In this document: positions 23,733-47,062 of the stretch, in pieces | Numbering within the stretch: position 1 is the stretch's first letter | Layout of the letters: each line of letters begins with the position of its first letter | NCBI GenBank assembly: GCA_964437465.1 | Contig: CAYTGI010000003.1 | Coordinates: 5,731 to 69,730, forward strand | Direction of reading: 5' to 3' | DNA: 64,000 nt | Source of the DNA: an uncultured Candidatus Saccharibacteria bacterium | GTDB taxonomy: Bacteria > Patescibacteriota > Dojkabacteria > J137 | Made by a program: the position numbers and the translations under genes | Notes under the pieces: generated by a model | Database searches by the model: none | Seen by the model: the letters and a program-made list of their open reading frames with translations, nothing else | What the model was told of the DNA's origin: nothing

Positions 23733-25706
23733 TTACTCTACACTAGTATCTCTAAACTCACCGAGTTTAGCGAGATCGTCCGGATTTGTAGTTATTAGAT
23801 TATGTTCATTTTCACTTGCAACAACCTGAATAGCAACATGGTTAGCGCCCGCAAAGAAAATACCCTGACCTATTCCTGCTGAAAGTAAGAAAGACTTTTC
23901 TCCTTCAGTTAAATAGAAAACTTTTTGAAGTTTGTCTATCGCAGCTGGAGCCTGTTTTAAAAGAATCTGCATTGAAGCATTATTAACAATCGCCTTACCA
24001 TAATCTGAACTTAAGAAGTCATCTACGTCTTGTGTAATTGTAGTAAGACCTAATCCATATTTCCTAGCCCTTTTAGCGATTTGATATACAAAATAGGCAG
24101 CATCTTCATACTGCATCATAATCCATGCCTCGTCTATAATTAATAACCTCTTTCTTTTATCTTTCTTGATCTTAGTCCATATAAAATCAAGCATTGAGTA
24201 CATCGCCATAGGTCTTAGATCAGGGGTTAAGTCTCTAATACTAAAAGCTGTAAAAGTATTATGGATATCGATGGTAGATTTTTGATCAAAAACACCAGCT
24301 GCACTACCTTTAATGTACCTTTCAAGCCTTCTAGCCATCGAATGAGCTTCTTCTTCAGCCATTGCGTTAAGAACCTTATATAGATCTTCTAGTAGAGGAG
24401 GTTCATTAGCATGAGTAGATTTATCAGGGGTAATTCCTTTCTCAGAATAAGTAAGAATTATAGCTCTATCTAAAATAGCTGCTTCCTCTCCTGTAAGTTG
24501 GCCTCCTAGCATTATTCTAATAAGTCCCGAAACAGATCTAATCTTAAATCTTAATTCATCCTCATCTTGATCGTAGAGTCCTGATAACTCAAAAGGGTTA
24601 AGTTTTTGTTCTCCGTCCTGAGAAAACGATATGTATTCACCTCCAACAGCCTGACATAACCTATCGAACTCTTTTTCAGGGTCAATAATTATTATATCAA
24701 CACCAAGCATTAAAGATCTAACTGCCTCAAGCTTAACTGTGTAAGATTTACCAGAACCAGATGCAGCCAAAACAACTGAGTTTGCATTCGGCAAAGAAAA
24801 TCTATCAAAAATCACTAAAGAGTTATTGTGTAGATTAATTCCATATAGAACTCCTTTTTCCATTGTTAGCTCACTAGAGACAAATGGGAATGTACTTGCA
24901 ATAGCTGTCGTATCCAAGTTTCTAGTCATATTTATTTTATCCAAACCATACGGAATAGTTGTTTGGAAACATTCTTCCTGTTGTAAGGTTGCAACTTTTA
25001 TAATTAATCCAATTGTTGCTGCTGTCGATTCAAGATTTTTTGCAACTTGGTCTAGCTCATCCAATGTATCTGCGTGAATTGTTAAATACATTCCGTACTG
25101 GAAGAACTTCTCATTTCCAGCTGCTAGTTGTTGTTGTAAGTTAAGTGCGTCCTGCAGTTTTTGTTTAATTATTGGATCTCCTTGTTGACCAGCTTTGATT
25201 TCTAGGTTAATAGTAGCTTGAAATTCAGCAATTCTTCTTTTTAAAAGTTTAAGCATTTCAGTTGTATCTTTTGGATAGTAGAAAGTACTTATATCAATTG
25301 GATATTCAAAATTAATTAGTGGTTCTAGCCAATTAGGATTAACAATACTTGGATAATCTACCACGAAGTATGATCTAAAATATCTACTACCTATAACAAT
25401 ATTACTAAAGTTAACTTCAATAGCTGAAGGAGCAATTATATCCTTTACATCAATTAGACCACTAGCAAAATCTTGGATAGCTTTTTGTTCTTTTGATAAA
25501 GCTTGAGCCTCTTTGGAATTTACAGGTTGCTTACTCCTTTTTCCTGTAGAAAATTTTCTTCTTTGGTTATTAATTTTTTGACTTTGAAGTTGTGGATTTG
25601 CCCCTCTTTGAACTACCTGCATCCTTTGAGGTAACTGAGATTGTTGAGTATTACCTACCACTTCCTTTCCATTCTTTTTTGTCTTAAATATGTCAAAAAT
25701 TCCCAT
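23733..25706 (-). CDS. VirB4/TraC-family type IV secretion/conjugation-like ATPase
   Basis: Walker A VVLAASGSGKSY and Walker B LLIIDEAWIMM. N-terminal VirB4-like domain preceded by a Q-rich low-complexity segment. Confidence 0.6.
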   Translation of the reverse strand: MGIFDIFKTKKNGKEVVGNTQQSQLPQRMQVVQRGANPQLQSQKINNQRRKFSTGKRSKQPVNSKEAQALSKEQKAIQDFASGLIDVKDIIAPSAIEVNFSNIVIGSRYFRSYFVVDYPSIVNPNWLEPLINFEYPIDISTFYYPKDTTEMLKLLKRRIAEFQATINLEIKAGQQGDPIIKQKLQDALNLQQQLAAGNEKFFQYGMYLTIHADTLDELDQVAKNLESTAATIGLIIKVATLQQEECFQTTIPYGLDKINMTRNLDTTAIASTFPFVSSELTMEKGVLYGINLHNNSLVIFDRFSLPNANSVVLAASGSGKSYTVKLEAVRSLMLGVDIIIIDPEKEFDRLCQAVGGEYISFSQDGEQKLNPFELSGLYDQDEDELRFKIRSVSGLIRIMLGGQLTGEEAAILDRAIILTYSEKGITPDKSTHANEPPLLEDLYKVLNAMAEEEAHSMARRLERYIKGSAAGVFDQKSTIDIHNTFTAFSIRDLTPDLRPMAMYSMLDFIWTKIKKDKRKRLLIIDEAWIMMQYEDAAYFVYQIAKRARKYGLGLTTITQDVDDFLSSDYGKAIVNNASMQILLKQAPAAIDKLQKVFYLTEGEKSFLLSAGIGQGIFFAGANHVAIQVVASENEHNLITTNPDDLAKLGEFRDTSVE

Positions 25707-31593: not shown

Positions 31594-32640
31594 TTACATG
31601 CTGGAAAGTTTATATTTTGTTCCTCTTCCCTTTCCTTCTATCTTTAAAAGCTTTTTTCTTACAAGATCATTCAGGTCTCTAAAGGCTGTCATTGTAGAAA
31701 CATCCATCATGTGACAATAATCTTCTCTCTTTATTGTGGGTACATTTTGTAAATATTTTAAAATTTTTAACTGTCTTTTGTTTAAGTTTAAAAATGGTTG
31801 TTGTTTTGATTTTTCTTCAATAGCAACAAATTCATTTATTTCTTCTCTTGAAGATATTAAATCACTTGAAACTATTGAAGTAAATATATCTATCCAATGG
31901 GACATATCATATGTTTTTCTTACAATGTCGTATCCTTTTAAGAATTTTTCTTCGTTATTTACGATCATTCTAATTACCGATGTGTAAGTCTTGGAACCAA
32001 AACCGTTTTTTAAAAAAAGATAATCAAGGATTGATAGAATGAAAAATTTGTTACCAGCAGGAAATGGTGAAATCTCCATCAATCTAAACATAACTATTGC
32101 AATTCTGACAATTGGAATTATTGTAGGTGAGGAATATTTGTACCATTCCACAAGTTCGTTAATCTCATTTTCAATTTCATTCACATTTAACGAAGTATCT
32201 CTAACGACAACATAACTATCCCATCTTTCATCTAACTTTTCGTTGAAAGATCGAAAATTAGCTTCCCATGTTTCTCTCCACTGATTTAAAATAAGTTTAG
32301 CTAAATGTAACATTATGGGTTTATCAAATTCTGAATACGTATCTGCTACATTTGATCTATTAAAATCCAAAACATTTTTGAAGTTCTTAATGATAATTGA
32401 TCTCATCTCATCCATAGTTTCAATCTTTTGAGAATTAGCAATTTTTTCAGCATCCTTTATTGTTAGTTCTAATCCAAGCATGTTTGAGAAATGCAAAATG
32501 TCATACGATTTTGTTTGAAGCAGAAGCTTTTGTCTAACACCGTAAGATAAATCCTGGTTTTCCAGAATTGCTTTACTTCTTTCAATCTTCACAAGATTCT
32601 GAACTACTTTATCGCTGTAATTGAATTTTGGTGTGTACAT
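31594..32640 (-). CDS. Fic/DOC-family protein with degenerate active-site motif and C-terminal winged-helix
   Basis: Fic-motif position reads ISPFPAGNKFF (HxFx[DE]GNGRxxR with His replaced by Ser and Arg replaced by Lys/Phe). C-terminal wHTH typical of Fic proteins (FRDLNDLVRKKLLKIEGKGRGTKYKL). Confidence 0.45.
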   Translation of the reverse strand: MYTPKFNYSDKVVQNLVKIERSKAILENQDLSYGVRQKLLLQTKSYDILHFSNMLGLELTIKDAEKIANSQKIETMDEMRSIIIKNFKNVLDFNRSNVADTYSEFDKPIMLHLAKLILNQWRETWEANFRSFNEKLDERWDSYVVVRDTSLNVNEIENEINELVEWYKYSSPTIIPIVRIAIVMFRLMEISPFPAGNKFFILSILDYLFLKNGFGSKTYTSVIRMIVNNEEKFLKGYDIVRKTYDMSHWIDIFTSIVSSDLISSREEINEFVAIEEKSKQQPFLNLNKRQLKILKYLQNVPTIKREDYCHMMDVSTMTAFRDLNDLVRKKLLKIEGKGRGTKYKLSSM

Positions 32641-33070: not shown

Positions 33071-33850
33071 CTAAATTTTTTTTTGTAAATCCTTAAGAGC
33101 ATTAAGTCTTCGAATGCCGTTATCTTTAACCTGAACTAGAAAACCTTCATAAGTATGATTTGTTCCATCTTTGTCGGGGTCTATCCATTCCTGGTTTTGT
33201 AGAGGTTCGGTTGAGTCTTTGATTACTATTTTTCCTTCTCTAGTTCCATTATCATCTCCATATTGTTCTGATGAGTTTATGTAATGAATCTCTCGAGTAT
33301 TTCCGTTATCATCTTTAACTACTTTTGTTACTAACATTATATGGTGAGAATTTTTCTTTTTTCCTTTGGATCTTATTACGTCTAGTGGTTTTACTTTATT
33401 AATTGATACTTTCTTTGCATTTTCAGAGTTAGTCATAATTTCAGCACCGAGTTTTTGTACTGGTTTTAATACATACGAAATTTTTCCGATTATACTTTTA
33501 TTAGGAATTTTAAACTTACCCCAAATTGGCTTACCGATTACCTCTAAGTGCCATTCATTTAAAACATGCATTATAAAGCCAGAACAATCTATTCCAATAC
33601 CTCTGTCTATTAAAAACTGTCTGATTTCTTTTTCTGTCATTTCATTAAAGTCTGCACCTTTTAGCTTTTCCCACATCTTTGCCTCAAGTTCGATTTCTTC
33701 CGGTGTTCCTTTTCCTACCATTGCTCTAAGATCTTTTGCCTTTCTTACATTAATAAAGTAGGGGCATCTGACGTCCTTCCCTCCAAGATTTAGGGCTTTA
33801 TATTTATTTATTATCTTCCAGATTGATTCTGGTAGTACTAATTCATTCAT
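33071..33850 (-). CDS. NlpC/P60-like (papain-fold) hydrolase
   Basis: Cys motif GIDCSGFIMHVL and downstream His-His (NSHHIMLV) match the NlpC/P60 Cys-His-His arrangement. Last gene of a 5-gene overlapped operon. Confidence 0.4.
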   Translation of the reverse strand: MNELVLPESIWKIINKYKALNLGGKDVRCPYFINVRKAKDLRAMVGKGTPEEIELEAKMWEKLKGADFNEMTEKEIRQFLIDRGIGIDCSGFIMHVLNEWHLEVIGKPIWGKFKIPNKSIIGKISYVLKPVQKLGAEIMTNSENAKKVSINKVKPLDVIRSKGKKKNSHHIMLVTKVVKDDNGNTREIHYINSSEQYGDDNGTREGKIVIKDSTEPLQNQEWIDPDKDGTNHTYEGFLVQVKDNGIRRLNALKDLQKKI

Positions 33851-34157
33851 TTAATTTTTTTGAATATTTTTTAATTTCTTTTAAAATTTCTTTTTCAAAA
33901 TTTTGCTGAGCTTTCATCCATTTTTCTATTTTACTTTTGAACTTACTTGCCTCTCCTGATATTATTAAATCTTCTAAAGGTTTTGAATACATCTGGTTTA
34001 CTGTATCAAAAGCTTTCTCAAATGTTTCCCCATTCAGGTGAGCTATTTCTTTTAGATATATTTCAAAATATTTAATCATAAAAGAAGTTAACTTTTCAGT
34101 CTCAACTTCATTATGAAACAAAGAACTAATTTCACTTATTATGTCATCAGACTTCAT
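33843..34157 (-). CDS. Hypothetical small helical protein
   Basis: 104 aa. Overlaps the upstream gene by 11 bp and the downstream gene by 8 bp. Confidence 0.35.
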   Translation of the reverse strand: MKSDDIISEISSLFHNEVETEKLTSFMIKYFEIYLKEIAHLNGETFEKAFDTVNQMYSKPLEDLIISGEASKFKSKIEKWMKAQQNFEKEILKEIKKYSKKLNE

Positions 34158-35583
34158 TTCTTATAGTCTTAAACGCTTCTGATAACCATGCAGGCAAACT
34201 TCTTTGCTTATCTATTATCCCATAATTAAACTGAAACCTACAAAGCTCGTCTAATTTTCTTTTTTTTGAATCAGGTTTTTGAAAATTAATAACAAATCCT
34301 GCACCCTCAATATCTTCAATTGAATAGCCATTACTTTTAAAAATTAGTGGCCTATCTTGTTCTTCATCAATGTATATTACGTTTTCTTTATCAGTTGGAT
34401 GTTTGTCTGACCAGTCTTTAGAAGAATTGTCACTTTGTAATCTATAAATTCCAGATTTAAAATTGTGGTCTTTTACATGGGTATCTTTATCAGCTCTTAA
34501 GAAAACTTGAGATCCTTTAAGATTAATCATATGTTCGTAGTCAAAGCTTATATGAATATCTAAGAATTCTGCAATATGCATTAAAAACTGGGGTATTGTA
34601 TTACCATGCTCTATTTCAAGATATGTTTGGAAAGGGATATTTGATGTTTGTCTTGCGTTAATCTCTATTAGGTATGCCTCATCTTCTTTAATAATAAGAT
34701 CTAATCCAAATAGTCCTCTATACCCTTGCTCTATTAACATCTTACCTATCTTGCTAATTTCTGTAGTAAGATCTACAAGTAGCTCATCACTAATTTCTTT
34801 TGAGTAAAACCAGTCAAAATCATTTCCTACAGTTGCCCCAACTGAGCTAGTTAATTCTTTAATCCCTGTAATTTGGTACTGTAGTCCTCCTATGTAAATA
34901 GAATTGTTATATATGCAAACATTTACTGTCATTGGAATACCTTCAATGTATTCACTTATTTTTACAATATTTCCAGCCTTCTCATTAGACATATTCTCAA
35001 GTTCATCTTTTGAAATAGAAAAATGAGTTCCTGAACCTGTGTGTGCTCTTTCTTCTTGTAGGACAAACTTATCTCCGAATTGTTCAATGATCTTTTCATG
35101 AGTTAGTTCATGAAAATATTTCTTCTGATTTTTAGGAGTTCTAATTTTTGCTCCTTCTAAATGACTTACTGCTTTAATTTTATTCTCAAAGATTTGATGA
35201 AGTTCATAATCGTTTCCTAAAAGTCTTCCACCCAAATTACTTATCTTATAATTCAGAGTATTAGTTGGTATGAATGTAAGTGCATAAAAACCTTTATTAG
35301 TCTTAATTTTATTAATCCAATCTTTTGTTTGATTTTGGCTTAATAAGTTACCAGTAGATTTATGAAGTAACTCTACACCTTCCTTTTCTAAACAGAAAAT
35401 TGAGATACCTTTTTCTAAAAGATTATCCACAATATCATTATCCTCAATACAACAGATATGAAAATTTTCGAGATATTTCTCTAATCCAATTGCTCTTTCA
35501 GCTTCTCTTGAAAAATATATTAGGGGTATATCCTTTGTTTTTTCATTGATCTTATCTACAAGTTCTTTGAATTCTTTTCTCAT
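34147..35583 (-). CDS. ATP-grasp family ligase
   Basis: ATP-grasp hallmark LIEINARQTS with the upstream GLFGLDLI segment. 478 aa with an extra N-terminal domain. Confidence 0.5.
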   Translation of the reverse strand: MRKEFKELVDKINEKTKDIPLIYFSREAERAIGLEKYLENFHICCIEDNDIVDNLLEKGISIFCLEKEGVELLHKSTGNLLSQNQTKDWINKIKTNKGFYALTFIPTNTLNYKISNLGGRLLGNDYELHQIFENKIKAVSHLEGAKIRTPKNQKKYFHELTHEKIIEQFGDKFVLQEERAHTGSGTHFSISKDELENMSNEKAGNIVKISEYIEGIPMTVNVCIYNNSIYIGGLQYQITGIKELTSSVGATVGNDFDWFYSKEISDELLVDLTTEISKIGKMLIEQGYRGLFGLDLIIKEDEAYLIEINARQTSNIPFQTYLEIEHGNTIPQFLMHIAEFLDIHISFDYEHMINLKGSQVFLRADKDTHVKDHNFKSGIYRLQSDNSSKDWSDKHPTDKENVIYIDEEQDRPLIFKSNGYSIEDIEGAGFVINFQKPDSKKRKLDELCRFQFNYGIIDKQRSLPAWLSEAFKTIRNEV

Positions 35584-36107
35584 TATTTTACGTAAAATAT
35601 TTTGAATCTTTTAAATTTGTCATCAGGTTCATAATCGTCGAAACCAAAAACGTTAGAGATTATTATGGATCCAGGTTTTAGTTCATTAAAAAGTTTTTCT
35701 CCTAACTCATTCATAGCTGATCTATAAATATATAGATAAACGATATCAAAATCTGAGTATGATTCTTTAAAAAAATCTCCATTTATGAATTTTGCATTTT
35801 CTTTAGACTTATTAAAAATATTTAACATTCTAGACAATAGTGTTAAAAAGGGATTTATATCAATTCCAGTTGAAGCAAGTCCTTTTCTTGATGCCCACCT
35901 AACTGTTCTCCCATCACCCGACCCTATATCAATAAATTTTTTCCCTTTGGGATCAATTTCCAGATAACTCCATAACTCATCTAATTTCTTTAATCTTGAA
36001 GGATAATAGGGTGTGTCGATAAAAAATCCTCTTAGAAGATAAATGGATAAAAAAATCCAAAGTGATATAAAAGTAAAAATACCTATCAAAAGCAAAATAT
36101 CCATCAT
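35583..36107 (-). CDS. Class I SAM-dependent methyltransferase
   Basis: Motif I FIDIGSGDGRTV, after an N-terminal transmembrane segment. Confidence 0.5.
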   Translation of the reverse strand: MMDILLLIGIFTFISLWIFLSIYLLRGFFIDTPYYPSRLKKLDELWSYLEIDPKGKKFIDIGSGDGRTVRWASRKGLASTGIDINPFLTLLSRMLNIFNKSKENAKFINGDFFKESYSDFDIVYLYIYRSAMNELGEKLFNELKPGSIIISNVFGFDDYEPDDKFKRFKIFYVK

Positions 36108-37039
36108 CTTCCAGAAGCAATTGTAATAAATATGCTATTTTCGTCTTTTTTATATTCTCTTAAGAATGCTGCAATGCCCAATAACGAAGTGTAGCTTAGC
36201 TCAATTCCACTTTTCTCAACAAATTCTTTTGCATTTTCCAGTTCATCGTTAGAGATTGAAAGTGCATAACCTTTAGTTTCTTTGATTATTTTTTCAAGCA
36301 TTGGTTTTCTGAGTAAAGATTTATCTACTATAGCATCTGCATAAGATTTTACTTCTGATACTTCAGTGTCTTCAACTAATGGATGGCAAGATTGAGTTTG
36401 AACTAGAACAATAGGGGGAATGTTTGATTCTTTCTCTAGCTCTAATTGTAATCCATGCGCAATACCTACAGCTGTTGTACCTGAAGATACTGAGCAGTAT
36501 ATCTTTGCTTTCATATTTCTATTTTTGTTTATTATTTCTTTAGCAATCTCAGAACCTAAAGACCAATAACCTTTTACTATCTCATCATCAGTAGAAGCTC
36601 TTAAGTTAGGTATGTTCTTTTCAGCGGAAATTCGAGCTGCTTTTTTTCTTGCTTTATTATCGAAATAAATTTCATGAGTATCTCCTGCTAGTTGGGTAAT
36701 AATATCTTTTTTCTGTTCATTAACTTCTGTAGATAAGACAATATGCATCTTAAAGTTTTGAAAGTTGTTAGCATATTTAAGAAAACTTATAGCAGCATTT
36801 CCAGAAGAAGAGATTACAGCTTCTTGGACTCCTTCTTTCATTAAGATCGAGATTTTATAAGCAGTTCCCCTGTCTTTCCATGATCCTGTAGGATTTTTAT
36901 CTTCTCGTTTAATAAATAAGTAGGAATTATTATCCAGTTCTATTTTGTCCACAGGAGTATATCCTTCTTCTAGTGTAAGGTGTTGTTTATCACTTAGTTC
37001 TACGCTTTTCTTTATAAAACGGTTTTTCCAGATACTCAT
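36104..37039 (-). CDS. Threonine synthase-like PLP-dependent (fold type II) enzyme
   Basis: Lysine motif KNPTGSWKDRG (matches ThrC NPTGSFKDRG), SSGNAAISFLKYA, and Gly-rich loop VSSGTTAVG. Confidence 0.6.
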   Translation of the reverse strand: MSIWKNRFIKKSVELSDKQHLTLEEGYTPVDKIELDNNSYLFIKREDKNPTGSWKDRGTAYKISILMKEGVQEAVISSSGNAAISFLKYANNFQNFKMHIVLSTEVNEQKKDIITQLAGDTHEIYFDNKARKKAARISAEKNIPNLRASTDDEIVKGYWSLGSEIAKEIINKNRNMKAKIYCSVSSGTTAVGIAHGLQLELEKESNIPPIVLVQTQSCHPLVEDTEVSEVKSYADAIVDKSLLRKPMLEKIIKETKGYALSISNDELENAKEFVEKSGIELSYTSLLGIAAFLREYKKDENSIFITIASGR

Positions 37040-37063
37040 ACCTGTTTTATAGCAAACCTATTC

Positions 37064-37363
37064 ATGATAAGATTATGTACGAAATATATAAATTTTACAA
37101 TGCATAATATGAGTGAAAATAAAGAAGGATGGATAAAAATTGAAAACGGAGAATTTTTATGTACTGAATGTGAGAATGTTGTAAAACCCTTGACTAGTAC
37201 AAGTGAAGGGATGGTTGAGGCAGATTTAGAAGATGTAAAGAAGCAGTTAAAAGAATTTCCAAACAAAGTAATCTACGCTGTTTGCCCAATTTGTGGAATG
37301 GAATATATTTTCAGGTTGGATGGAGAGGATCTTTTCGTAGAACCTAGTGATGAAGAGAAATAA
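37064..37363 (+). CDS. Zinc-ribbon protein
   Basis: CTEC...CPIC four-Cys arrangement. Divergent from the ThrC-like operon. Confidence 0.4.
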   Translation: MIRLCTKYINFTMHNMSENKEGWIKIENGEFLCTECENVVKPLTSTSEGMVEADLEDVKKQLKEFPNKVIYAVCPICGMEYIFRLDGEDLFVEPSDEEK

Positions 37364-37985
37364 ATCAAAGGAAGAATTTCAGGTTTCCTTGGACAAGATT
37401 GGTAAACTAATTTCAGACAGAGGACTTCAAACCTCTGTTTTTGAATATGATACAGATAAAGTCATAAAATTCCCCAAAAATAATATTGTTAATAAGTTTT
37501 TTAATACTGAACAGCTTAGTAAAAATTTTGATATATTAATCGATTCCTTCAAGGAATACATACCAGAAACAGTAATATCCCAGGTTGAAGGAAAAGAAGT
37601 AGCAATACAGAACAGGATATTCAATAACCATCATCTAAGCTCGAAGGAACCAATAGAAGTTTATTCCCAATTAGAGGAGATATATAAAAACTCTGAAAAA
37701 CTATTCAAAGATAAAGGAATTATGGTGGATCTCATTGGAGGAGAATCTTTTTGGCCATTTTTACTCAGGTACATATTTTCCCTAGGAAATAAAGAAAAGG
37801 CTAATCCTACCTTAAGCAACATACTAGTTGATGAAAAGAAAGGAGTCTATTTAACAGATTTTAATTCTGTTATTTCAAAATTCTCTCAAGCAAGATCTAT
37901 TAAAGATATATTTATTGTTATATATGCAAAAATACACTTTTTTATTCAGAAGTTTTATTTAAGAAATTTTGTAACTCACACATAA
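37347..37985 (+). CDS. Hypothetical protein
   Basis: 212 aa, overlaps the upstream Zn-ribbon ORF by 17 bp. Confidence 0.35.
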   Translation: MMKRNKSKEEFQVSLDKIGKLISDRGLQTSVFEYDTDKVIKFPKNNIVNKFFNTEQLSKNFDILIDSFKEYIPETVISQVEGKEVAIQNRIFNNHHLSSKEPIEVYSQLEEIYKNSEKLFKDKGIMVDLIGGESFWPFLLRYIFSLGNKEKANPTLSNILVDEKKGVYLTDFNSVISKFSQARSIKDIFIVIYAKIHFFIQKFYLRNFVTHT

Positions 37986-39446: not shown

Positions 39447-39989
39447 ATGAAATTAGTGTATAATCCTTGGATTTTAGTAAACAGTATGAAGTATTTGATA
39501 ATTCTTGGATTGGTTATATTTTTCTTCTTCTTTTTAATTGAGGGAAGAATCATTGCTCAAGAAGAAGCCGGGTTATTATCTTTAGAAAATAAGGCAGAGG
39601 AAGAAAAGTGTAATGCTATAAAAAATAATCTGCAATTTAGAGCTAGCTACTATAATGTTAATACAGATTTAATTATTTCTGATTATTCTAATCTTTATAG
39701 TTCTTTACTTAAAGCTCGTGATATTTACGATGAGCTAGATTTCTCAACTGTTGAACTAAATAGACATATTCAAAGATTAGAAAGATTTATTGAAGATACT
39801 AGAATTAATAAAGAGGATTTAGTATCAAGTTTAGGCAGTGCTTCAGAGCATGTTTGTGAGGATGAAAGAGCAATGAGAAGAGATATTATTGATGCTAAAG
39901 GTTATTTAAAAGATTTAAAGCAGGAGATTAGTGATTTAAATTCATTCTTATTACTAAAAGTTTCTCCAACTATACAAGATTTTAACTAG
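39447..39989 (+). CDS. Hypothetical membrane-anchored coiled-coil protein
   Basis: N-terminal transmembrane segment followed by a helical region. No motif recognised. Confidence 0.3.
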   Translation: MKLVYNPWILVNSMKYLIILGLVIFFFFFLIEGRIIAQEEAGLLSLENKAEEEKCNAIKNNLQFRASYYNVNTDLIISDYSNLYSSLLKARDIYDELDFSTVELNRHIQRLERFIEDTRINKEDLVSSLGSASEHVCEDERAMRRDIIDAKGYLKDLKQEISDLNSFLLLKVSPTIQDFN

Positions 39990-39994
39990 AAAAA

Positions 39995-40348
39995 ATGAAC
40001 GATTTTTTTAAAAATATTTGGAAAACATTGAGATTAATATTCGTAATCTTACTATTTGTTGTAATTGCTTTGCTTGTTGGTTATTTACTTGGGAATAGGG
40101 CTTTGGATAGAGATAAATTAGAAGATGAGATAAGGACAGATATAGAAAATAGTGTAAGAGATGATCTTGAGGAAGATATTAGGTCTGAGTATGAGGATAG
40201 GCTTGAACAAGCTGAAAAGTTAAGAGAGGAAGAGCTTCAGAATATGATTGATGCATTGTTAGACGATATCGATGCAAGAGTTAATGGTATAGATACTGAG
40301 TCTCAGCTTGAAGAGTTTAATGAGGAGATTGAGTTTGGAATAGAATAG
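39995..40348 (+). CDS. Hypothetical membrane-anchored acidic coiled-coil protein
   Basis: Transmembrane segment plus an E/D-rich helix. Confidence 0.3.
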   Translation: MNDFFKNIWKTLRLIFVILLFVVIALLVGYLLGNRALDRDKLEDEIRTDIENSVRDDLEEDIRSEYEDRLEQAEKLREEELQNMIDALLDDIDARVNGIDTESQLEEFNEEIEFGIE

Positions 40349-40365
40349 CTTCTAATTATATAGTT

Positions 40366-40788
40366 ATGAGTGAGAATTTTGACCTTCCCTATGATTATGA
40401 AATAGGTTGGGATGAAGATCCAGATGTACGTTCAAGAATAAATTTATCTCTTGATATATATTATGTAGATAGAGCAGTTTATATGAATGAAGTTGGAATC
40501 AAAATATTAGAAGATTTCAGAGATAGAGCTTTAGTAACATTATCAACCTTACATCAGACAGGATATCTAGAAAGTGTAGTTATGAGGGCTGGTCAAGAAC
40601 GCCACTACGATTATTTACAAAACTCTTTGATTGATCTCAGGGAATTTATACAAGGCATAAAAAAAGCTGATCAACTTTCTCAAAAAGAAATTGTGAAGAT
40701 AAACTTACTATCTGAGATTTGGATTAAAGTATCTCCATACATTCATAGTTCTCAAGATACAAACTATGAAATATTCTCTCAGAACTAG
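40366..40788 (+). CDS. Hypothetical protein
   Basis: 140-aa ORF with no motif. Confidence 0.3.
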   Translation: MSENFDLPYDYEIGWDEDPDVRSRINLSLDIYYVDRAVYMNEVGIKILEDFRDRALVTLSTLHQTGYLESVVMRAGQERHYDYLQNSLIDLREFIQGIKKADQLSQKEIVKINLLSEIWIKVSPYIHSSQDTNYEIFSQN

Positions 40789-40838
40789 TTGTCATTAAAT
40801 GGTAACATTGGTATAATCCCACAATTAATTTCTTTCTA

Positions 40839-41255
40839 ATGAGCGAAATACCACAAGGTCCTGTGTATGATGAAAGTAGAAAAGCAGTGCAATCAAGAAT
40901 AGAAAGAGCAAAGCATTACTATGCTAGCAATATAGATACTACTCCATCATTTTATTATGATCAATTAAGAACTTTAGGAGATATAGTTGAAGTTATTGAA
41001 GATTACAGAACCCACATTGATGATGCGTACTATGATGGCTTAATAAATATTAATATTAATGAGTTTTGGGAAAGAATTAAATCTCCTATTATTCAGTCAA
41101 TTAGGGCAAAAGGAATGCAAATAGATTTATCAGATTACCATAATAAAGAAATTATAATGCTGGTATCTTTAGATGTAAATGAGATTATAAGATGTTTTCC
41201 AGATCTTTTTCCATTTGAATTAACTAATATTTCTCCAAATAGTGATAAGAATTAA
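40839..41255 (+). CDS. Hypothetical protein
   Basis: 138-aa ORF with no motif. Confidence 0.3.
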   Translation: MSEIPQGPVYDESRKAVQSRIERAKHYYASNIDTTPSFYYDQLRTLGDIVEVIEDYRTHIDDAYYDGLINININEFWERIKSPIIQSIRAKGMQIDLSDYHNKEIIMLVSLDVNEIIRCFPDLFPFELTNISPNSDKN

Positions 41256-42340
41256 CTTAGTGGATGGTTCTCACGGTGGGCTTCTTCTGCAAATTTATCC
41301 GATGCATGAACGTATCTTGAAGTTGTTTGAAGACTAGAGTGACCTAGAAGTCTTTGGATTGCTGCTGGATTAGCCCCTTCTTCTGCTAAATACGTTGCGA
41401 AACCATGTCTTAGACTGTGCGCGCTTGTTGGAACAATTATTCCTAATTTTCTTCGATAGTCAGCTATTTTCATCTGTATATAGTTTTGTGAAAGTCGAAC
41501 TATATATGGATTCTCTGTAGCTTTTCTTGTTCCTTTTGTTGGAATAAACATTGCTGGGAATTCGTCCGTTCTAAATTTTAAGTATTCATTCATAAAGTGA
41601 ATTGCCCGCTCTGTTAAATAGACAAACCTTTGTTTTTTTCCTTTACCCATTACATAAATTTTATTATCAGCTAGTTGATTATTCTCAATTCTAATCATGT
41701 CTCGATCTAGAGAAGCTACCTCTGAAATTCTCATTCCAGTTGAGAAAATTAATTCTAAAATTGATCTATTTCTAGCAGCAACAACTGGATCATTTTCAAC
41801 TTCACTAGGGTACTCTAAAAGCTTTATTAATTCATCAAGCTCAGCTACCTGTTTTTCTTTTTTTTCAGCTTTAATCATTTTTACTGCATTCGCAGGGATC
41901 GGAGGTTCTTTGTCGATATCTTCTAGAAATGTTAAGTATCTACGAAGGGCAGATAACATTCGATTAACTGAGCTATCTGAAAGCTGACCTTTATATAAAG
42001 CCTTTTTCTTCTCGGAAATCTCCGATCTACTCTTTTCTATTATCTCCTTAGTTAATTCTTCTCCTTTTTGAAATGCATGAAGAATTGGAATATAGTTTTG
42101 ATCTCTTAAGAATCCCTTGTATTCAATAATATCTATTTTAGAAAGTTTCTCGAAAGAAGTTTCAATGTAGTATAAAAACGAAGAAAAGATCTCCAAATCT
42201 CGAGAGTAATTGTCTAATGTTTGTTTTGAATAATTATCATTTTTTAAACTCAAGATAAACTCTCGCATGAGAGGTAACGCATAAGGACTTAAAGTCTTTC
42301 TCGAATTTATATCTTTTACTCTATCTACCGCATCTTTCAT
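41252..42340 (-). CDS. Tyrosine site-specific recombinase/integrase (XerC/D-like)
   Basis: C-terminal catalytic box HSLRHGFATYLAEEGANPAAIQRLLGHSSLQTTSRYVH (R..HxxR..Y) and N-terminal core-binding domain. Confidence 0.85.
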   Translation of the reverse strand: MKDAVDRVKDINSRKTLSPYALPLMREFILSLKNDNYSKQTLDNYSRDLEIFSSFLYYIETSFEKLSKIDIIEYKGFLRDQNYIPILHAFQKGEELTKEIIEKSRSEISEKKKALYKGQLSDSSVNRMLSALRRYLTFLEDIDKEPPIPANAVKMIKAEKKEKQVAELDELIKLLEYPSEVENDPVVAARNRSILELIFSTGMRISEVASLDRDMIRIENNQLADNKIYVMGKGKKQRFVYLTERAIHFMNEYLKFRTDEFPAMFIPTKGTRKATENPYIVRLSQNYIQMKIADYRRKLGIIVPTSAHSLRHGFATYLAEEGANPAAIQRLLGHSSLQTTSRYVHASDKFAEEAHRENHPLS

Positions 42341-42841: not shown

Positions 42842-43237
42842 ATGGAAGAAAATAATGACATTCAAAACGAAGTATCTACAGCTTCATCTCCAGATGTAGA
42901 AACAACTCCCGAATCTAAGTCAAAAGGTATTCTCTTTAGATCTTGGGCTTTAATTGCAGCTGGTATCGGGGTTTTAGTTGCAGCGCTTGGGACTTTTTTA
43001 AAATTTTTTATGAAGCTATCTTTTGTAGGAAAGTTCATTTTCATAACAATTTTAATTTTATTTTCTAGCTTTTTCTATGTTTTTGGTTATCGAACAGGAG
43101 TGGAAAATGGAAAATCTGAAGTTGAACAAGAAGTTTTAGAAATTACTAACTATGAAGTAGATGAGCTTGATGAATTAATGAATCAAATTGATCAGTTAAG
43201 AAATACTTTGGATACACTAAGAGAGATAAATGAATAA
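42842..43237 (+). CDS. Hypothetical membrane protein
   Basis: Two transmembrane helices and a C-terminal coiled coil. Overlaps glyA by 8 bp. Confidence 0.35.
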   Translation: MEENNDIQNEVSTASSPDVETTPESKSKGILFRSWALIAAGIGVLVAALGTFLKFFMKLSFVGKFIFITILILFSSFFYVFGYRTGVENGKSEVEQEVLEITNYEVDELDELMNQIDQLRNTLDTLREINE

Positions 43238-44606
43238 AAAGATAAAAGAGATAATAAAAAATGAGTACGATAGACAACACTCTACTTTAGGGATGATTCC
43301 ATCGGAAAACTACTCTTCTAAGTCTGTTAGAGAAGCTGTTGGTTCGGTTTTAATGCATAAATATTCTGAAGGTTATCCAAATGCTAGATACTATGAAGGG
43401 AATAGTGTTGTTGACGAATTAGAAGATTTAGCTCGAGAAATGGTTTTAAAGGTTATGCTTAAACATGATAAACCTGAAATTAAAGATGACTGGCACGCGA
43501 ACGTTCAAGTTCTTTCAGGAAGTTCAGCTAATTTAGCAGTTTATAACTCTGTTCTAAAGCCGGGGGATAAGATTATGAGTATGTATCTTCCGGACGGAGG
43601 ACATCTATCTCACGGTTGGAGCTATAACACCAAAGGTGCAAATTCTAAATCACAAAATATCAATTCTAAAATAACAGGTGATCTTGCATATTTAGGAGGA
43701 AATAAAAAAGTAAATTTTACTTCTAAAATCTTTGAAGTTTTACAGTATAAAACAGATCCGAAAACTGGATTATTTAACTACGATGAAATTGAAAAGCTAG
43801 CTTTAGAGTTTAAACCTAAATACATAATTACAGGTGGAACTTCTTATCCTAGGGATATTGATTATAAAAGAATGAGAGAAATTGCGGATAAAGTTGAAGC
43901 TTATTATCATGCGGATGTCGCCCATGAAGCTGGACTTATAGCCGGAGGAGCTGTTCCTTCACCTTTTGAATTCGCCGACTTTGTTACTTTTACTACTCAT
44001 AAAACACTTAGAGGACCTAAAGGAGCAGTTGCAATGTCTAGGAAGAAATATGCTAAGAAGCTAGATAGATCAGTTTTTCCAGGTCTTCAAGGAGGGCCAT
44101 TTAATCATCAAATTGCTGGGATTACTCAGGCTTTGTTTGAAGCTGATACTAAAGAGTTTGAAGGGTACGCCAAACAAGTTGTTAAAAACGCAAAGGTGCT
44201 TGCTGAAGAGTTAATGAATTATGATTTTAATGTAATTAGTAAAGGAACGGACAAACACTTAGTTTTAATTGAAGTACTCTCTAAAGGTATTCCTGGATCA
44301 CTATTCGCAAGAGCTTTAGCTTTAGTTGGAATAATCGCAAATAAAAATACTGTACCTTACGAAAAAGGAAGTCCTGCTAACCCATCCGGAGTTAGATTCG
44401 GGACTCCAATATTAACTACAAGAGGTATGAAAGAAGATGTAATAAAAGAGGTAGCAGCAATTATTAAAGATACTTTTGAAGTATGTTTAGAGCATGTTGA
44501 AGAATACGAAGATGACTTTGAAAAAACATTTTTAGAAGATGAGGAAACTGTTCTTCTTCAAAAAAGGGTTAGTTCGTTAGCAAATAAGTATAAACTTCCA
44601 GAATAA
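43230..44606 (+). CDS. glyA: Serine hydroxymethyltransferase
   Basis: Motifs LGMIPSENYSSKSVREAVGSVLMHKYSEGYP, the PLP-lysine region TTHKTLRGPKG, and SGVRFGTP. Carries a ~30-aa insertion (WSYNTKGANSKSQ...). Confidence 0.9.
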   Translation: MNKKIKEIIKNEYDRQHSTLGMIPSENYSSKSVREAVGSVLMHKYSEGYPNARYYEGNSVVDELEDLAREMVLKVMLKHDKPEIKDDWHANVQVLSGSSANLAVYNSVLKPGDKIMSMYLPDGGHLSHGWSYNTKGANSKSQNINSKITGDLAYLGGNKKVNFTSKIFEVLQYKTDPKTGLFNYDEIEKLALEFKPKYIITGGTSYPRDIDYKRMREIADKVEAYYHADVAHEAGLIAGGAVPSPFEFADFVTFTTHKTLRGPKGAVAMSRKKYAKKLDRSVFPGLQGGPFNHQIAGITQALFEADTKEFEGYAKQVVKNAKVLAEELMNYDFNVISKGTDKHLVLIEVLSKGIPGSLFARALALVGIIANKNTVPYEKGSPANPSGVRFGTPILTTRGMKEDVIKEVAAIIKDTFEVCLEHVEEYEDDFEKTFLEDEETVLLQKRVSSLANKYKLPE

Positions 44607-44643
44607 AATACTTAATAGTTAGCAATTAATAATTAACTAAAGA

Positions 44644-45147
44644 ATGGATACTAATGATTTGCTAAAACGAGTTAAATATATTGCATTGCAATGTAGGAGT
44701 TTAATAAATCATACTTTTAAGGATGATTATCCATCTTCAGGAAATATCGGTATATTTTCTCAAAGTTATTTAGAATTTGCATCTTTAAAAAACATATCAC
44801 AAAAACTTACAAATCCAAACAGTAATCCTAAACACAAGTATTTTGAATTAATAGACCCTATACTAGTTGGTAATGATACATTTACTCATCTGTACGTAAG
44901 GAAATATGATGATAGTGATTATGGGAAAAATAAAGGTGATGTTGATTATTTAGTTGATTTAGAAAAATATGTCCATCTAAAAGAAGCAGTTATAAAAGGT
45001 GGGTTTAAGAATGCTTTAATGTATAAAAGACCAGGTTGGGATACGATTCAGATTTCGAACAAAGGTTATGATGTTATCTCTTACTTATCAACTAAAGAAA
45101 TGGCAGAAAAAGTTAGAGTTAAGTTTGATTCTAAGACGGATCTGTAA
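44644..45147 (+). CDS. Hypothetical protein
   Basis: 167-aa ORF with no motif. Confidence 0.3.
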   Translation: MDTNDLLKRVKYIALQCRSLINHTFKDDYPSSGNIGIFSQSYLEFASLKNISQKLTNPNSNPKHKYFELIDPILVGNDTFTHLYVRKYDDSDYGKNKGDVDYLVDLEKYVHLKEAVIKGGFKNALMYKRPGWDTIQISNKGYDVISYLSTKEMAEKVRVKFDSKTDL

Positions 45148-45217
45148 TTCCTATAATGTCTTAAACAACTTTGGAACCTTCTACCTTTGGAACTTTTTAA
45201 CATTGAAACCTTCGGGC

Positions 45218-46114
45218 CTAATACTCAAAGTTACTCGATAACCTAACAACATTTCTCAATAAACATGCAACCGTAAGTGGACCGACTCCTCCAGGGACTG
45301 GTGTAATCCAAGAAGCTTTTTCTTCAAGCTCGTGAGACCAGATAAAATCACCTTTATATTGATCTTCTTTTTTCTCACTAGTAACATCAATTAGAATTGC
45401 CCCATTTTTAATCATTGTATGATCGATTAAATCTGTTTTTCCGGTTGCTGAAACAATGATATCTGCTTTAGTTGTAAACTCATGAAGATTTTCTGTATTT
45501 TTATTTGCTATAGTTACAGTCCCTCCTAGAGAGCTTAGAATCTGAGCTAAGGGTTTTCCAATTAAATTTGAGTTGTTTATAATAACAATATTCTTACCTA
45601 ATAGACTTTTTATTTTAAAGCTTCCTTCTGTTAAGGCTGACCAGGTTAAATTTTCTTCAATACATACATTTAAACATTCTAAAACAGCTTCAACGGTTGC
45701 TGGTGGTATTGATCCATTTAGTAAATAAGAGCTACTTCCTTGATTTAAAGCAGTTAATCCGTCTGCATCTTTTTCAGGTACTAGTGCGTTAAGAAACTCA
45801 TTTGCATACCCATTAAGATTATCGTAAAGAGGTAATTGAATTAGCGCTCCATTCACACCGACATTGTGTCTTAGCCTATTTATCTCATGCATAAATGCTT
45901 CCTTAGTTATATCATCAGGAAATTCATAAAGCCTAGGTTCAATTCCAACCTCTTTTGCTCTTTTCATTTTGAGCTTAACGAACATTCTGCTAGCTGGATC
46001 ATTTGAAGCAAGAAAAATTACTAATCGAGGTGTTCTACCAAGTATCTGGATGTTCTCTCTTATACCATTAAGAATATTATCTGCAATCTCTTTACCGTTT
46101 ATATAATTAGCCAT
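45218..46114 (-). CDS. folD: Bifunctional 5,10-methylene-THF dehydrogenase/cyclohydrolase
   Basis: N-terminal MANYINGKEIA and C-terminal PVPGGVGPLTVACLLRNV motifs. Size is 298 aa. Confidence 0.85.
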   Translation of the reverse strand: MANYINGKEIADNILNGIRENIQILGRTPRLVIFLASNDPASRMFVKLKMKRAKEVGIEPRLYEFPDDITKEAFMHEINRLRHNVGVNGALIQLPLYDNLNGYANEFLNALVPEKDADGLTALNQGSSSYLLNGSIPPATVEAVLECLNVCIEENLTWSALTEGSFKIKSLLGKNIVIINNSNLIGKPLAQILSSLGGTVTIANKNTENLHEFTTKADIIVSATGKTDLIDHTMIKNGAILIDVTSEKKEDQYKGDFIWSHELEEKASWITPVPGGVGPLTVACLLRNVVRLSSNFEY

Positions 46115-46132
46115 AAACCAATTCTACCACTC

Positions 46133-47062
46133 CTAGAGAATATTGTAATCTTTAGGGTTTCCTAATATGTTATCCCTAGTATCTTTTACAATTGTCTCTA
46201 CAGATTCTTTTGTTAAAAATGCAATATGCTTTGTTTGAATTACGTTATCTCTTAACAGTCTAGAATCAAACATATCGTCACAATCTCCAGAGTCCCACAC
46301 ATCAACTCCAAGCCCAGAAAGAATCCCTTCATCTAAAGCTTTAATTGTATCATCAGAATTAAGTATGTCTCCTCGCGCAGTATTAATAAGATAGTTTGGT
46401 TTAAACCTCATTTTACTGATTAAGTCATAATTTACAGAGTGTTTAGTATGCTCATTTAATGGAGCGTGTATTGAAACAAATTGAGATCTATCAAAAAGTT
46501 CTTCAAGAGAGTTCACCCTCTCTATTCCATCGTAAAATTGAACAACAGGATCAAAATAGATTACATACATTCCAAAACCTTTAGCAATTTCGGAGAAATG
46601 TTGACCGATCTTTCCTAATCCATAAATACCTATTGCTCTACCATGAAGAGCTGTACCCATAGATTCTTTTGTACGGTGATTTTCATAGTTCTTATGCTTT
46701 TTTATTTCTACTGGTATTTTACGAACTGTAGCTAGAAGTAATGTGAAAGCAAATTCTGCAATTGACTCTGGGGAGTATCTAGCAACTCTAAAAACTTCAA
46801 ATCCAATCTCTTTAGCTAAATCCACATTTACATTATTAAAACCGGCTGTTCTTAACGCTAACTTTCTAGTTCCTGAATCATACAGCTTTGGAAGGTCTGA
46901 ATCTGGAATTGTACAGTCAGTGAATATTGAAATAGCATAGTAACCTTGTGACTTTTCTAAAGTGTAAAGATCAGTAGTAAATTCAGCTTCAGGTATATTA
47001 ATTCTTTCAGTTTCAACTATCTCTTGTTCAAAATCTTGCCATTCAAAAAAAATAGATCTCAT
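46133..47062 (-). CDS. D-isomer-specific 2-hydroxyacid dehydrogenase (LdhA/SerA-like)
   Basis: NAD fold GIYGLGKIGQHFSEIAKGFGMYVIYFDP and catalytic region NTARGDI, ...H. Confidence 0.7.
   Translation of the reverse strand: MRSIFFEWQDFEQEIVETERINIPEAEFTTDLYTLEKSQGYYAISIFTDCTIPDSDLPKLYDSGTRKLALRTAGFNNVNVDLAKEIGFEVFRVARYSPESIAEFAFTLLLATVRKIPVEIKKHKNYENHRTKESMGTALHGRAIGIYGLGKIGQHFSEIAKGFGMYVIYFDPVVQFYDGIERVNSLEELFDRSQFVSIHAPLNEHTKHSVNYDLISKMRFKPNYLINTARGDILNSDDTIKALDEGILSGLGVDVWDSGDCDDMFDSRLLRDNVIQTKHIAFLTKESVETIVKDTRDNILGNPKDYNIL

Follow-up and report, generated by a model that had tools for sequence, protein, structure and literature searches.

A conserved gene module of Patescibacteria with an obligate ATP-grasp ligase/NlpC/P60-like amidase pair and a possible role in peptidoglycan precursor synthesis

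Gene content and conservation of the locus

The stretch of 64,000 nucleotides analysed here (hereafter the window) is part of contig CAYTGI010000003.1 of an uncultured Candidatus Saccharibacteria bacterium (assembly GCA_964437465.1) assigned to the Dojkabacteria, and harbours an operon predicted to encode a threonine-synthase-like enzyme dependent on pyridoxal phosphate (PLP), a methyltransferase dependent on S-adenosylmethionine (SAM), an ATP-grasp ligase, a small protein and a papain-like cysteine amidase, next to a divergently oriented gene for a zinc-ribbon protein (Table 1). Apart from the small protein, these gene products constitute a module which is a conserved core set in two large groups of the Patescibacteria (two classes, with loci in Dojkabacteria and Magasanikbacteria) and whose ligase and amidase form an obligate pair.

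The listing of open reading frames (ORFs) in the window, which has a GC content of about 31%, contains exactly five ORFs on the minus strand between positions 33071 and 37039, and inspection of the junction sequences revealed overlaps of 4, 1, 11 and 8 bp between successive ORFs. The tightly overlapping gene arrangement described in the first-pass annotation, which was made from the DNA sequence alone, was thereby recovered with identical coordinates. Since the N-termini of the operon proteins agree with those of their homologues in the family alignments, the start codons and overlaps appear credible. The five ORFs are real, but the extent given for the operon was too short, as the divergent zinc-ribbon gene belongs to the unit as well. 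The proposed quintet, on the other hand, is not a conserved unit, since the 104-aa ORF is a singleton that is conserved in no locus. Besides the zinc-ribbon gene, fusions of the ligase with the amidase and the membrane anchor of the methyltransferase had been overlooked.

Table 1. Predicted features of the module and its surroundings in the window.
Feature	Position	Strand	Remark
ZNR, 84-aa LysW-like zinc-ribbon protein, proposed carrier/substrate	37109-37363	+	start alternatives 37100 or 37064
Head-to-head intergenic region PALP/ZNR, 69 bp	37040-37108		presumed bidirectional promoter
PALP, 311-aa fold-type-II PLP enzyme, threonine-synthase-like	36104-37039	-	Pfam PALP
TM-MT, 174-aa class I SAM methyltransferase	35583-36107	-	Pfam Methyltransf_31
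GRASP, 478-aa three-domain ATP-grasp carboxylate-amine ligase, undescribed family	34147-35583	-	Pfam ATP-grasp_3
S104, 104-aa Lys/Glu-rich helical ORF between GRASP and P259	33843-34157	-	lineage-specific
P259, 259-aa cytoplasmic divergent NlpC/P60-superfamily (papain-like) cysteine amidase	33071-33850	-	motif and Pfam matches of relatives

A scan of one genome per species with the ATP-grasp alignment revealed 293 stretches encoding relatives of GRASP, of which 80 loci were kept (numbered with the prefix L below). About 15 kb per genome were covered around each of these loci, amounting to 1.1 Mb of related loci in all. Their genes were counted by phmmer searches followed by clustering and by iterated hidden Markov models (HMMs) run on stop-to-stop ORFs, with 81 sources in the final census. 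The operon core is conserved, the same gene order recurring across the 80 loci, and this arrangement is far beyond chance. The module genes are core genes in genomes of 0.9-1.2 Mb and their GC content matches that of the surrounding genome.

The ATP-grasp ligase and the amidase form an obligate pair

GRASP was assigned to the Pfam family ATP-grasp_3 (PF02655; 47.7 vs 23.2 bits). All scores for more specific families were far below the respective cut-offs: the nearest NCBIfam model, PRK06524, gave 89 bits (cut-off 684), the carbamoyl phosphate synthase (CPSase) model 30 bits (cut-off 1027) and purT an E-value of 0.048. There was no match to Ddl among the Pfam and NCBIfam families and no sequence match to any solved structure in the Protein Data Bank (PDB) at E<=0.01. 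A Foldseek search with the AlphaFold2 (AF2) model of GRASP, which has a mean confidence (pLDDT) of 92.9, retrieved PurD, PurK, PurT, biotin carboxylase and BacD at 10-14% identity, with E-values of about 1e-16 for PurD, PurK and biotin carboxylase. The invariant residues of the family include K135, D295 and, within the sequence IEINARQ, E307, N309 and R311, which correspond to the ATP/Mg residues and the E-x-N-x-R motif of the ATP-grasp fold. Based on the low scores, the missing PDB match and the low structural identity, GRASP was ruled out to be a PurK, PurT, Ddl, CarB or biotin carboxylase, and the earlier expectation of a ligase outside PurK, PurT, DdlA and CarB was thus borne out. The length of 478 aa, for which the ligase had been described as extended, is the normal size of the three-domain enzymes biotin carboxylase and PurD. 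In total, 728 homologues of GRASP were found, and those carrying a name are labelled Candidatus Dojkabacteria (WS6).

In the P259 family, the residues Y31, N34, G46, K47, G48, G86, D88, C89, S90, G91, N144, H170, Y190 and G202 are invariant across 33 sequences. They include the presumably catalytic pair of Cys89, located in the motif GIDCSGF, and His170, while the third catalytic position is occupied by His or Asn. Twenty of the 33 members match the Pfam family NLPC_P60 (best E 4e-6), seven match Amidase_6 and one matches CHAP; the protein of the window itself reaches 16.3 bits at an NLPC_P60 threshold of 23. Its AF2 model (pLDDT 90.8) gave weak Foldseek matches to IdeS, NlpC/P60 and CHAP proteins. 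P259 has neither a signal peptide nor SH3b domains, and carries an N-terminal extension of about 80 residues with the invariant loop G46-K47-G48, which is modelled with low confidence and therefore appears to be flexible. A profile search of 1.84 billion representative sequences indicated that the family comprises 829 clusters at 50% identity. An assignment to an "MPN552 family" was rejected as a weak chance match to NCBIfam, which was seen in one of the 33 members and for which the literature gave nothing.

Both GRASP and P259 are present in 78 of the 81 sources, the remaining three being truncated contigs. The two genes are adjacent on the same strand or fused in about 75 of the 78 loci. The genes are separate in the window; fused ORFs were detected in L058, L060, L068, L072 and L080, and fusions of 612-772 aa account for about 30 of the best 150 P259 representatives, with the GRASP motifs located N-terminally and P259 C-terminally. 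GRASP and P259 are thus an obligate pair.

The PLP enzyme is encoded head-to-head with a zinc-ribbon protein

The PLP enzyme matches the Pfam family PALP with 127.9 bits. The putative PLP-binding residue Lys55 in the motif GSWKDRG, the active-site lysine that the first-pass annotation had singled out for checking, is invariant across 28 sequences of the family, as are K44, E46, S53, R57, N81, K110, S185/S186, Q214, D239 and R244. The best NCBIfam match was PRK08329 (117.3 bits, cut-off 358), TIGR00260 (thrC) gave 39.4 bits (cut-off 167.1), and all five ThrC models scored PALP below their cut-offs. When a profile of the 28 members was compared with solved structures, ThrC was the best hit (6cgq, 111 bits), followed by serine racemase and dehydratases; serine and aspartate racemases were also matched (6lut, 81 bits; 5ybw). 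In the profile alignment to the ThrC of B. subtilis and Aquifex, the ThrC sequence nSvNpyRleGqKT is aligned with rgstDdealkGykT of the PALP family. The segment N-S-x-N-P-x-R, which we take from the structures of the T. thermophilus enzyme to bind the phosphate of O-phosphohomoserine, is replaced by R-G-S-x-D-D-x-A, and its Arg is absent in all members. Furthermore, neither the window nor the gene neighbourhoods of the 80 loci showed a thrA, thrB or hom gene. Since the ThrC scores are far below the cut-offs and the phosphate-binding segment is replaced, PALP is ThrC-like without being a bona fide threonine synthase. This agrees with the earlier proposal that it is not the ordinary threonine synthase of the organism.

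The small protein ZNR has the architecture CxxC...CxxC followed by a C-terminus ending in FVEPSDEEK in the window. The CxxC...CxxC pattern is kept in all listed full-length members of its family and the terminal Lys is present in 36 of 36 listed members. The tails read [IVL][IV]EEEK, EPS[DE]EEK or EPSDMMK, and VVDEGK in Magasanikbacteria; the positions -1 and -2 vary (E or M) and the terminal Lys is constant. Since the last residue of a flexible acidic tail is invariant, the tail is presumably the working end of the protein and the lysine not a structural residue.

The relationship of ZNR to LysW is apparent from the short forms of 54-62 aa, which match the NCBIfam model carrier_LysW_Arch at an E-value of 2.7e-9. 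Their scores (36.9, 29.3 and 25.9 bits) are below the cut-off of 75, and the same holds true for TIGR01206 (lysW; 27.5 bits vs 53.2). The 84-aa ZNR of the window, whose clade carries about 25 additional residues between the CxxC knuckles, did not match the LysW models on its own. Relatives of ZNR in the databases are annotated with the Pfam family Zn_ribbon_LysW (PF21344), and a homology search with a 55-aa form returned only 16 close relatives. Two NCBI records (P0241 and P0242; relatives of L005, 4668-4835) describe such 55-aa LysW-like zinc ribbons as "sulfonate ABC transporter", which looks like a propagated misannotation.

ZNR and PALP were each found in 50 of the 81 sources, and PALP is always accompanied by a ZNR gene in head-to-head orientation. 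The two genes are on opposite strands in all 47 loci that have both in range and at most 500 bp apart in 45 of them; in the window, ZNR lies 69 bp from the PALP start. Apparent exceptions to the pairing are located at the ends of contigs or loci, except for L071. Promoter-like hexamers are present in the intergenic region of the window at a frequency not above chance.

Methyltransferase and small ORF

TM-MT is predicted to have one N-terminal transmembrane helix and the SAM motif I IDIGSGDGR, and matches Methyltransf_31 with 27.8 bits (cut-off 27). Its nearest named relatives, which were matched weakly, are the lysine methyltransferases aKMT (E 2e-8) and DOT1, so that lysine as the class of substrate is only suggested. 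The census was restricted to true TM-MT homologues, separated from arginyltransferase (ATE)-like and other methyltransferase genes. In most loci of the Dojkabacteria such a homologue separates PALP from GRASP, and in seven loci of the Magasanikbacteria it directly follows P259. The domain calls of the first-pass annotation for PALP, TM-MT, GRASP and P259 therefore stand at the level of the superfamily, and the motifs it quoted were found in the PLP enzyme (KNPTGSWKDRG) and in the last ORF of the operon (GIDCSGF and SHHIM).

No homologues of S104 were detected in 86 loci at E<=1e-3, and searches of Pfam, NCBIfam and PADLOC gave no significant family match. The closest relative, L007, lacks the ORF and has only 30 bp between GRASP and P259, and in a collection of 15 billion proteins S104 forms a cluster of its own. 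On these grounds S104 is a lineage-specific insert outside the conserved module, and was ruled out as a carrier or as the precursor of a ribosomally synthesised and post-translationally modified peptide (RiPP).

Cell-wall genes in the neighbourhood of the module

The genes surrounding the module were identified with NCBIfam. In Magasanikbacteria the order is MurB<, GRASP>, P259>, MraY>, ATE-like>, Mpl-like/MurC-paralogue>, ZNR<, PALP> (arrowheads indicate the gene direction). L061 and L075 show the order ATE-like, Mpl-like, ZNR<, PALP, GRASP, P259, MraY, FtsW, MurG and true MurC, and L047 the order MltG ... PALP, GRASP, P259, MraY, FemX-like<, MurF< ... MurE. In the Dojkabacteria loci L038-L044, P259 is followed by the Mpl-like gene, and MraY is located about 5 kb upstream. 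Within the locus region of the 81 sources, MraY was found in 36, MurB in 25, the Mpl-like ligase in 24 and the ATE-like gene in 22. By our estimate a given gene would lie within 7 kb by chance in about 1-2% of cases in a genome of about 1,000 genes, although shared ancestry inflates the counts. Since there are four distinct gene arrangements despite this shared ancestry, a selection for the linkage to cell-wall genes seems likely.

The Mpl-like ligase is a MurC-family paralogue which scores nearly equally with the mpl and murC models (266 vs 273 and 249 vs 263 bits); the true MurC, which is encoded separately, scores 288 vs 135 bits. A replacement of MurD, MurE or MurF by the module was ruled out, as MurE and MurF (L047) and MurD (L071) are located beside it.

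Three further observations concern these neighbourhoods. An ATE/Bpt-like gene encoding 213-254 aa is located directly upstream of the Mpl/MurC-paralogue in the division and cell wall (dcw) gene cluster of L057 (11275-13322), L061 (3523-5771) and about 20 other Magasanikbacteria and Uhrbacteria loci, the two genes overlapping by 4 bp in L057; it may encode a tRNA-dependent enzyme of an unusual family that branches the stem peptide. The MurE of L047 (13476-14762) passes the NCBIfam model NF001126 of the 2,6-diaminopimelate (DAP) ligase with 406.7 bits (cut-off 373) and has the sequence EDPR at what we take to be the specificity motif, DNPR in E. coli, which raises the question of the source of a DAP-type diamino acid in a cell of the Candidate Phyla Radiation (CPR). 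In the window, genes for a penicillin-binding protein (PBP1A; 13996-16248), a VanW-like protein (18545-20047) and, directly following the latter, MurG (20048-21211) are located 13-20 kb from the operon.

Comparison with known systems

The closest parallel to the module is the LysW/ArgW system of Thermus and archaea, in which a small CxxC...CxxC zinc ribbon with an acidic flexible C-terminal tail is encoded together with an ATP-grasp ligase (LysX), a PLP enzyme (LysJ) and a releasing hydrolase (LysK). The LysW pathways synthesise lysine or ornithine, which are diamino acids of peptidoglycan, and the canonical LysW ends in EDWGE, the terminal Glu being the attachment site. The ZNR tail ends in an invariant Lys instead, besides scoring below the LysW cut-offs. 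Furthermore, GRASP is of the ATP-grasp_3 type and not a RimK/LysX-type ligase, PALP is a fold-type-II (ThrC-like) enzyme in place of an aminotransferase, and P259 appears to be a papain-like cysteine enzyme in place of an M20 metallopeptidase. The module neighbourhood also lacks the kinase and the reductase (LysZ, LysY), and its genes are found in the dcw cluster. The ZNR system departs from LysW in three of the four features defining membership.

In the glutathionylspermidine synthetase/amidase (Gss/GspSA) a synthetase of the ATP-grasp fold and a papain-like (CHAP) amidase are located on one polypeptide and act on the same bond, which is reminiscent of the frequent GRASP-P259 fusions. However, the ligase comes first in the module and the amidase first in Gss/GspSA, a carrier protein and a PLP enzyme accompany the pair only in the module, and the window proteins did not match the Pfam families GSP_synth and CHAP. 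ATP-grasp ligases that extend an acidic protein C-terminus by a residue are further known in the tubulin tyrosine ligase and in RimK acting on S6; in the tubulin cycle the added residue is removed by vasohibin, a papain/transglutaminase-like cysteine peptidase. These systems have a eukaryotic or ribosomal target and their homology to the module is restricted to the fold, whereas the module is characterised by the terminal Lys, a PLP enzyme and the tie to the cell wall.

The Van operons (VanT/VanC/VanXY for D-Ala-D-Ser; VanH/VanA/VanX) likewise combine a PLP converter, an ATP-grasp ligase and a peptidase, with ligase and hydrolase opposed to each other, and act on peptidoglycan precursors. They lack a carrier protein and show no homology to the module at the family level, GRASP being of the ATP-grasp_3 type and not a Ddl, PALP of fold type II and not III, and P259 a cysteine amidase and not a zinc enzyme. 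ThrC comprises the closest structural-sequence relatives of the PALP profile and shares the motif GS(F/W)KDR with the PLP-lysine, but PALP lacks about 40 residues at its N-terminus and its context consists of carrier and cell-wall genes instead of thrA/thrB. P259 finally resembles the NlpC/P60 gamma-D-glutamyl-diamino-acid endopeptidases, such as the cytoplasmic YkfC, in the Cys motif DCSG, the downstream His, a presumably papain-like fold and the link to peptidoglycan peptides. Their natural target is of the Glu-Lys bond type, and the ZNR tail ends in E-K. It differs from them by its N-terminal extension with the GKG loop, the obligate pairing with an ATP-grasp enzyme and the lack of a signal peptide or SH3b domains. 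All folds of the module are known and its logic resembles that of known carrier and ligase/amidase systems.

A possible carrier-protein system feeding peptidoglycan precursor synthesis

ZNR, PALP, TM-MT, GRASP and P259 may well represent a carrier-protein system that feeds the synthesis of peptidoglycan precursors, a reading which we put forward tentatively and with somewhat less than even confidence. It is proposed because the roles in the module are those of LysW, LysX, LysJ and LysK, because the ligase-amidase fusion recalls the glutathionylspermidine synthetase/amidase and because the chemistry at the tail recalls the tyrosination of tubulin. What was observed are the genes present, their conservation and fusions, the catalytic residues, the invariant tail and the cell-wall context; from these we infer the substrates, the direction in which each step runs and the connection with peptidoglycan chemistry as follows. 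The working end of the carrier would be the flexible ZNR tail, which closes with the invariant Lys. GRASP would use ATP to form an amide bond at this tail via an acyl-phosphate, either re-attaching or loading an amino acid on the terminal carboxylate or acylating the epsilon-amine of the Lys. P259 would hydrolyse the corresponding bond, thereby releasing the finished amino acid or peptide and resetting the carrier. PALP would build or supply the carried amino acid by beta- or gamma-replacement, elimination or racemase chemistry, possibly with the amine of the tail Lys or a carrier-bound residue as nucleophile. TM-MT would tailor the product at the membrane, and the product would presumably be handed to the Mur pathway at the level of the Mpl-like ligase and MraY.

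The one-to-one correspondence of the four predicted roles (carrier, ATP-grasp loader, PLP modifier and hydrolase) to those of known carrier systems supports this reading, and the invariant putative catalytic residues of PALP, GRASP and P259 as well as the action of the methyltransferase relatives on lysine may also be counted in its favour. Speculatively, the C-terminus ...Glu-Lys-COOH of ZNR could be the genetically encoded equivalent of the carrier-Lys, which is the last intermediate of the LysW pathway, and at the same time represents the type of bond cut by NlpC/P60 enzymes in stem peptides. In a more specific version, the ribosomally encoded LysW-like carrier would be the site at which a building block of peptidoglycan, for instance a diamino acid or a branched derivative of lysine, is made, with the C-terminal Lys as substrate or product mimic, GRASP and P259 reloading and unloading it and PALP performing the chemistry. 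Such a minimal pathway of the amino-group-carrier type, wired into the dcw cluster, seems rather doubtful to us in this particular form.

Several points weigh against the carrier-protein system. An encounter of ZNR with GRASP or P259 is hypothetical, and in Magasanikbacteria 3-5 kb separate the ZNR-PALP pair from GRASP and P259. The LysW cut-offs are not reached by ZNR, which ends in Lys instead of Glu, and GRASP is not of the RimK/LysX type. Since fold-type-II PLP enzymes need a free alpha-amino acid, PALP could not act in its customary manner on an N-acylated, carrier-bound residue. None of the products proposed obviously requires a carrier. In the clade of the window no Mur gene is located beside the operon, the MurG gene being 13 kb away. 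Finally, the loci are phylogenetically non-independent, so that the counts overstate the number of independent events.

Alternative functions of the module

The cell-wall context would also be compatible with a carrier-independent supply of peptidoglycan building blocks as in VanT/VanC/VanXY. PALP would then be a racemase or dehydratase generating a D- or non-protein amino acid, GRASP a dipeptide ligase analogous to Ddl or to the L-amino-acid ligases, P259 a dipeptidase that removes a competing product, and ZNR a regulator or accessory protein. The position of GRASP-P259 directly upstream of MraY in the dcw cluster is the usual place of substrate-supply genes, the PALP profile matches serine and aspartate racemases, GRASP resembles the free-amino-acid ligases BacD and PurD, and ligases opposed by a hydrolase are already known from VanA/VanX and the glutathionylspermidine synthetase/amidase. 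Furthermore, neither the window nor the 1.1 Mb of related loci yielded a Ddl homologue; this is a weak negative, and the absence of Ddl is not established, because the query was an E. coli DdlB sequence that came from no database record and the search covered about 15 kb per genome. However, GRASP has no match to the Ddl family, and neither the adjacency of ZNR and PALP, the most conserved of the module, nor the invariant terminal Lys would be explained, so that we regard such a supply route as unlikely. A salvage or editing of host muropeptides is more unlikely still. In this scenario P259 would cut the gamma-D-Glu-diamino-acid bond like YkfC, GRASP would re-ligate the diamino acid of the cell itself, and the Mpl-like ligase would transfer the peptide to UDP-MurNAc. 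The association with a MurC-family paralogue that scores nearly equally on both models beside a separate true MurC points in this direction, cytoplasmic NlpC/P60 enzymes are known recycling enzymes, and a hydrolase-ligase fusion would suit an exchange reaction. Yet ZNR, PALP and the methyltransferase would be left without a role, the Mpl-like gene is in range in only 24 of the 81 sources, and no transporter or AmpD-like gene was seen in the module.

A protein-thiocarboxylate route to cysteine or homocysteine, as in CysO/MoeZ/CysM/Mec or MetM/MetO, would assign to GRASP the activation of the ZNR carboxylate for sulfide transfer, to PALP the condensation with O-phosphoserine or O-phosphohomoserine, and to P259 the release after an S-to-N shift. 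Although the roles correspond four for four (a small carrier, an activating enzyme, a PLP enzyme related to users of phosphorylated substrates and a hydrolase), we judge this route to be very unlikely: the ZNR tail ends in EEEK and not in GG, no sulfur-transfer gene is present in the module, the phosphate-binding N-S-x-N-P-x-R of ThrC is not conserved in PALP, and the cell-wall context and the methyltransferase would remain unexplained. Equally hard to uphold, and highly improbable in our view, is a natural-product framing along the lines of the first-pass annotation, that is, a secondary-metabolite or RiPP-like cluster for an amino-acid-derived small molecule or a modified peptide, in which the small ORF would act as precursor or partner. 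The mixture of a PLP enzyme, a methyltransferase, an ATP-grasp ligase and a peptidase does resemble dapdiamide-, rhizocticin- and graspetide-type clusters, and no described pathway matches it. But the vertical conservation of the module as a core set, in minimal genomes of species from two classes, and its place in the dcw/peptidoglycan cluster of other lineages argue against a natural product; moreover, the small ORF has no homologue, a transporter or immunity gene is absent and the GC content equals that of the surrounding genome. That ordinary housekeeping genes (a threonine synthase, an rRNA or protein methyltransferase and a purine- or biotin-type ATP-grasp enzyme) merely share an operon can be given almost no credence: the top NCBIfam names are indeed "threonine synthase" and "biotin carboxylase", but the scores of PALP and GRASP are far below the cut-offs, the linkage and the fusion are conserved across classes, and no thrA/thrB genes were seen in the window or the loci. 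A defence system was dismissed as well, since PADLOC gave nothing for GRASP, P259, S104 and ZNR and a generic methyltransferase similarity only for TM-MT.

Implications for cell-wall synthesis in Patescibacteria

The Patescibacteria (CPR) account for a large share of bacterial diversity and have minimal genomes lacking most of the amino-acid synthesis, yet they build a peptidoglycan wall. The retention of the five components in small genomes of at least two classes, beside genes for MraY, MurB, the Mpl-like ligase and Mur ligases, suggests that the module is likely to be important for obtaining or tailoring wall precursors. In the literature searched, the coverage of which is incomplete, we found neither the module nor a LysW-like protein with a terminal Lys described for Patescibacteria, and the earlier statement that the gene combination corresponds to no described pathway is consistent with this. 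If the carrier-protein system proposed above were confirmed, it would extend the LysW principle to bacteria distant from Thermus and archaea and add new chemistry to it (a terminal Lys, a fold-type-II PLP enzyme and a cysteine amidase). It could also explain how episymbionts supply a wall component that is otherwise beyond them, and a protein of 55-85 aa together with four enzymes would provide an in vitro test system. Should the carrier model prove wrong, two protein families of considerable size without a characterised member are still defined by the obligate pairing of ATP-grasp ligase and NlpC/P60-like amidase.

Flanking regions and other features of the window

The 430 bp downstream of P259 (32641-33070) contain no ORF of at least 40 aa, no Rfam match and no terminator-like site. 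An RNA element in the operon or its flanks was dismissed, as the Rfam search of the window detected nothing there and only tRNAs elsewhere. Just downstream of the operon, a gene on the minus strand (31594-32640) is predicted to encode a protein with a Fic domain and a DeoR-type helix-turn-helix (HTH) domain, which matches the PADLOC model SoFic at an E-value of 6e-16; this gene is syntenic with the module, on either side of it, in more than 20 Dojkabacteria loci. On the other side, the stop codon of ZNR is overlapped by 17 bp by an ORF of 212 aa (37347-37985, plus strand), which has no family match and is conserved only in the closest relative L007.

Genes putatively encoding the one-carbon enzymes GlyA and FolD and a D-isomer-specific 2-hydroxyacid dehydrogenase (VanH/SerA-like) are located at 43230-47062. 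An ORF of 2999 aa on the minus strand (54411-63410) has a GC content of 0.37-0.38, compared with about 0.31 elsewhere, and may represent a giant surface protein or horizontally acquired DNA. A gene for a TraG-like P-loop ATPase (23733-25706, minus strand) is a possible remnant of a mobile element or of type IV secretion, and the same may apply to a tyrosine integrase gene (41252-42340) which adjoins four small acidic ORFs (39447-41255).

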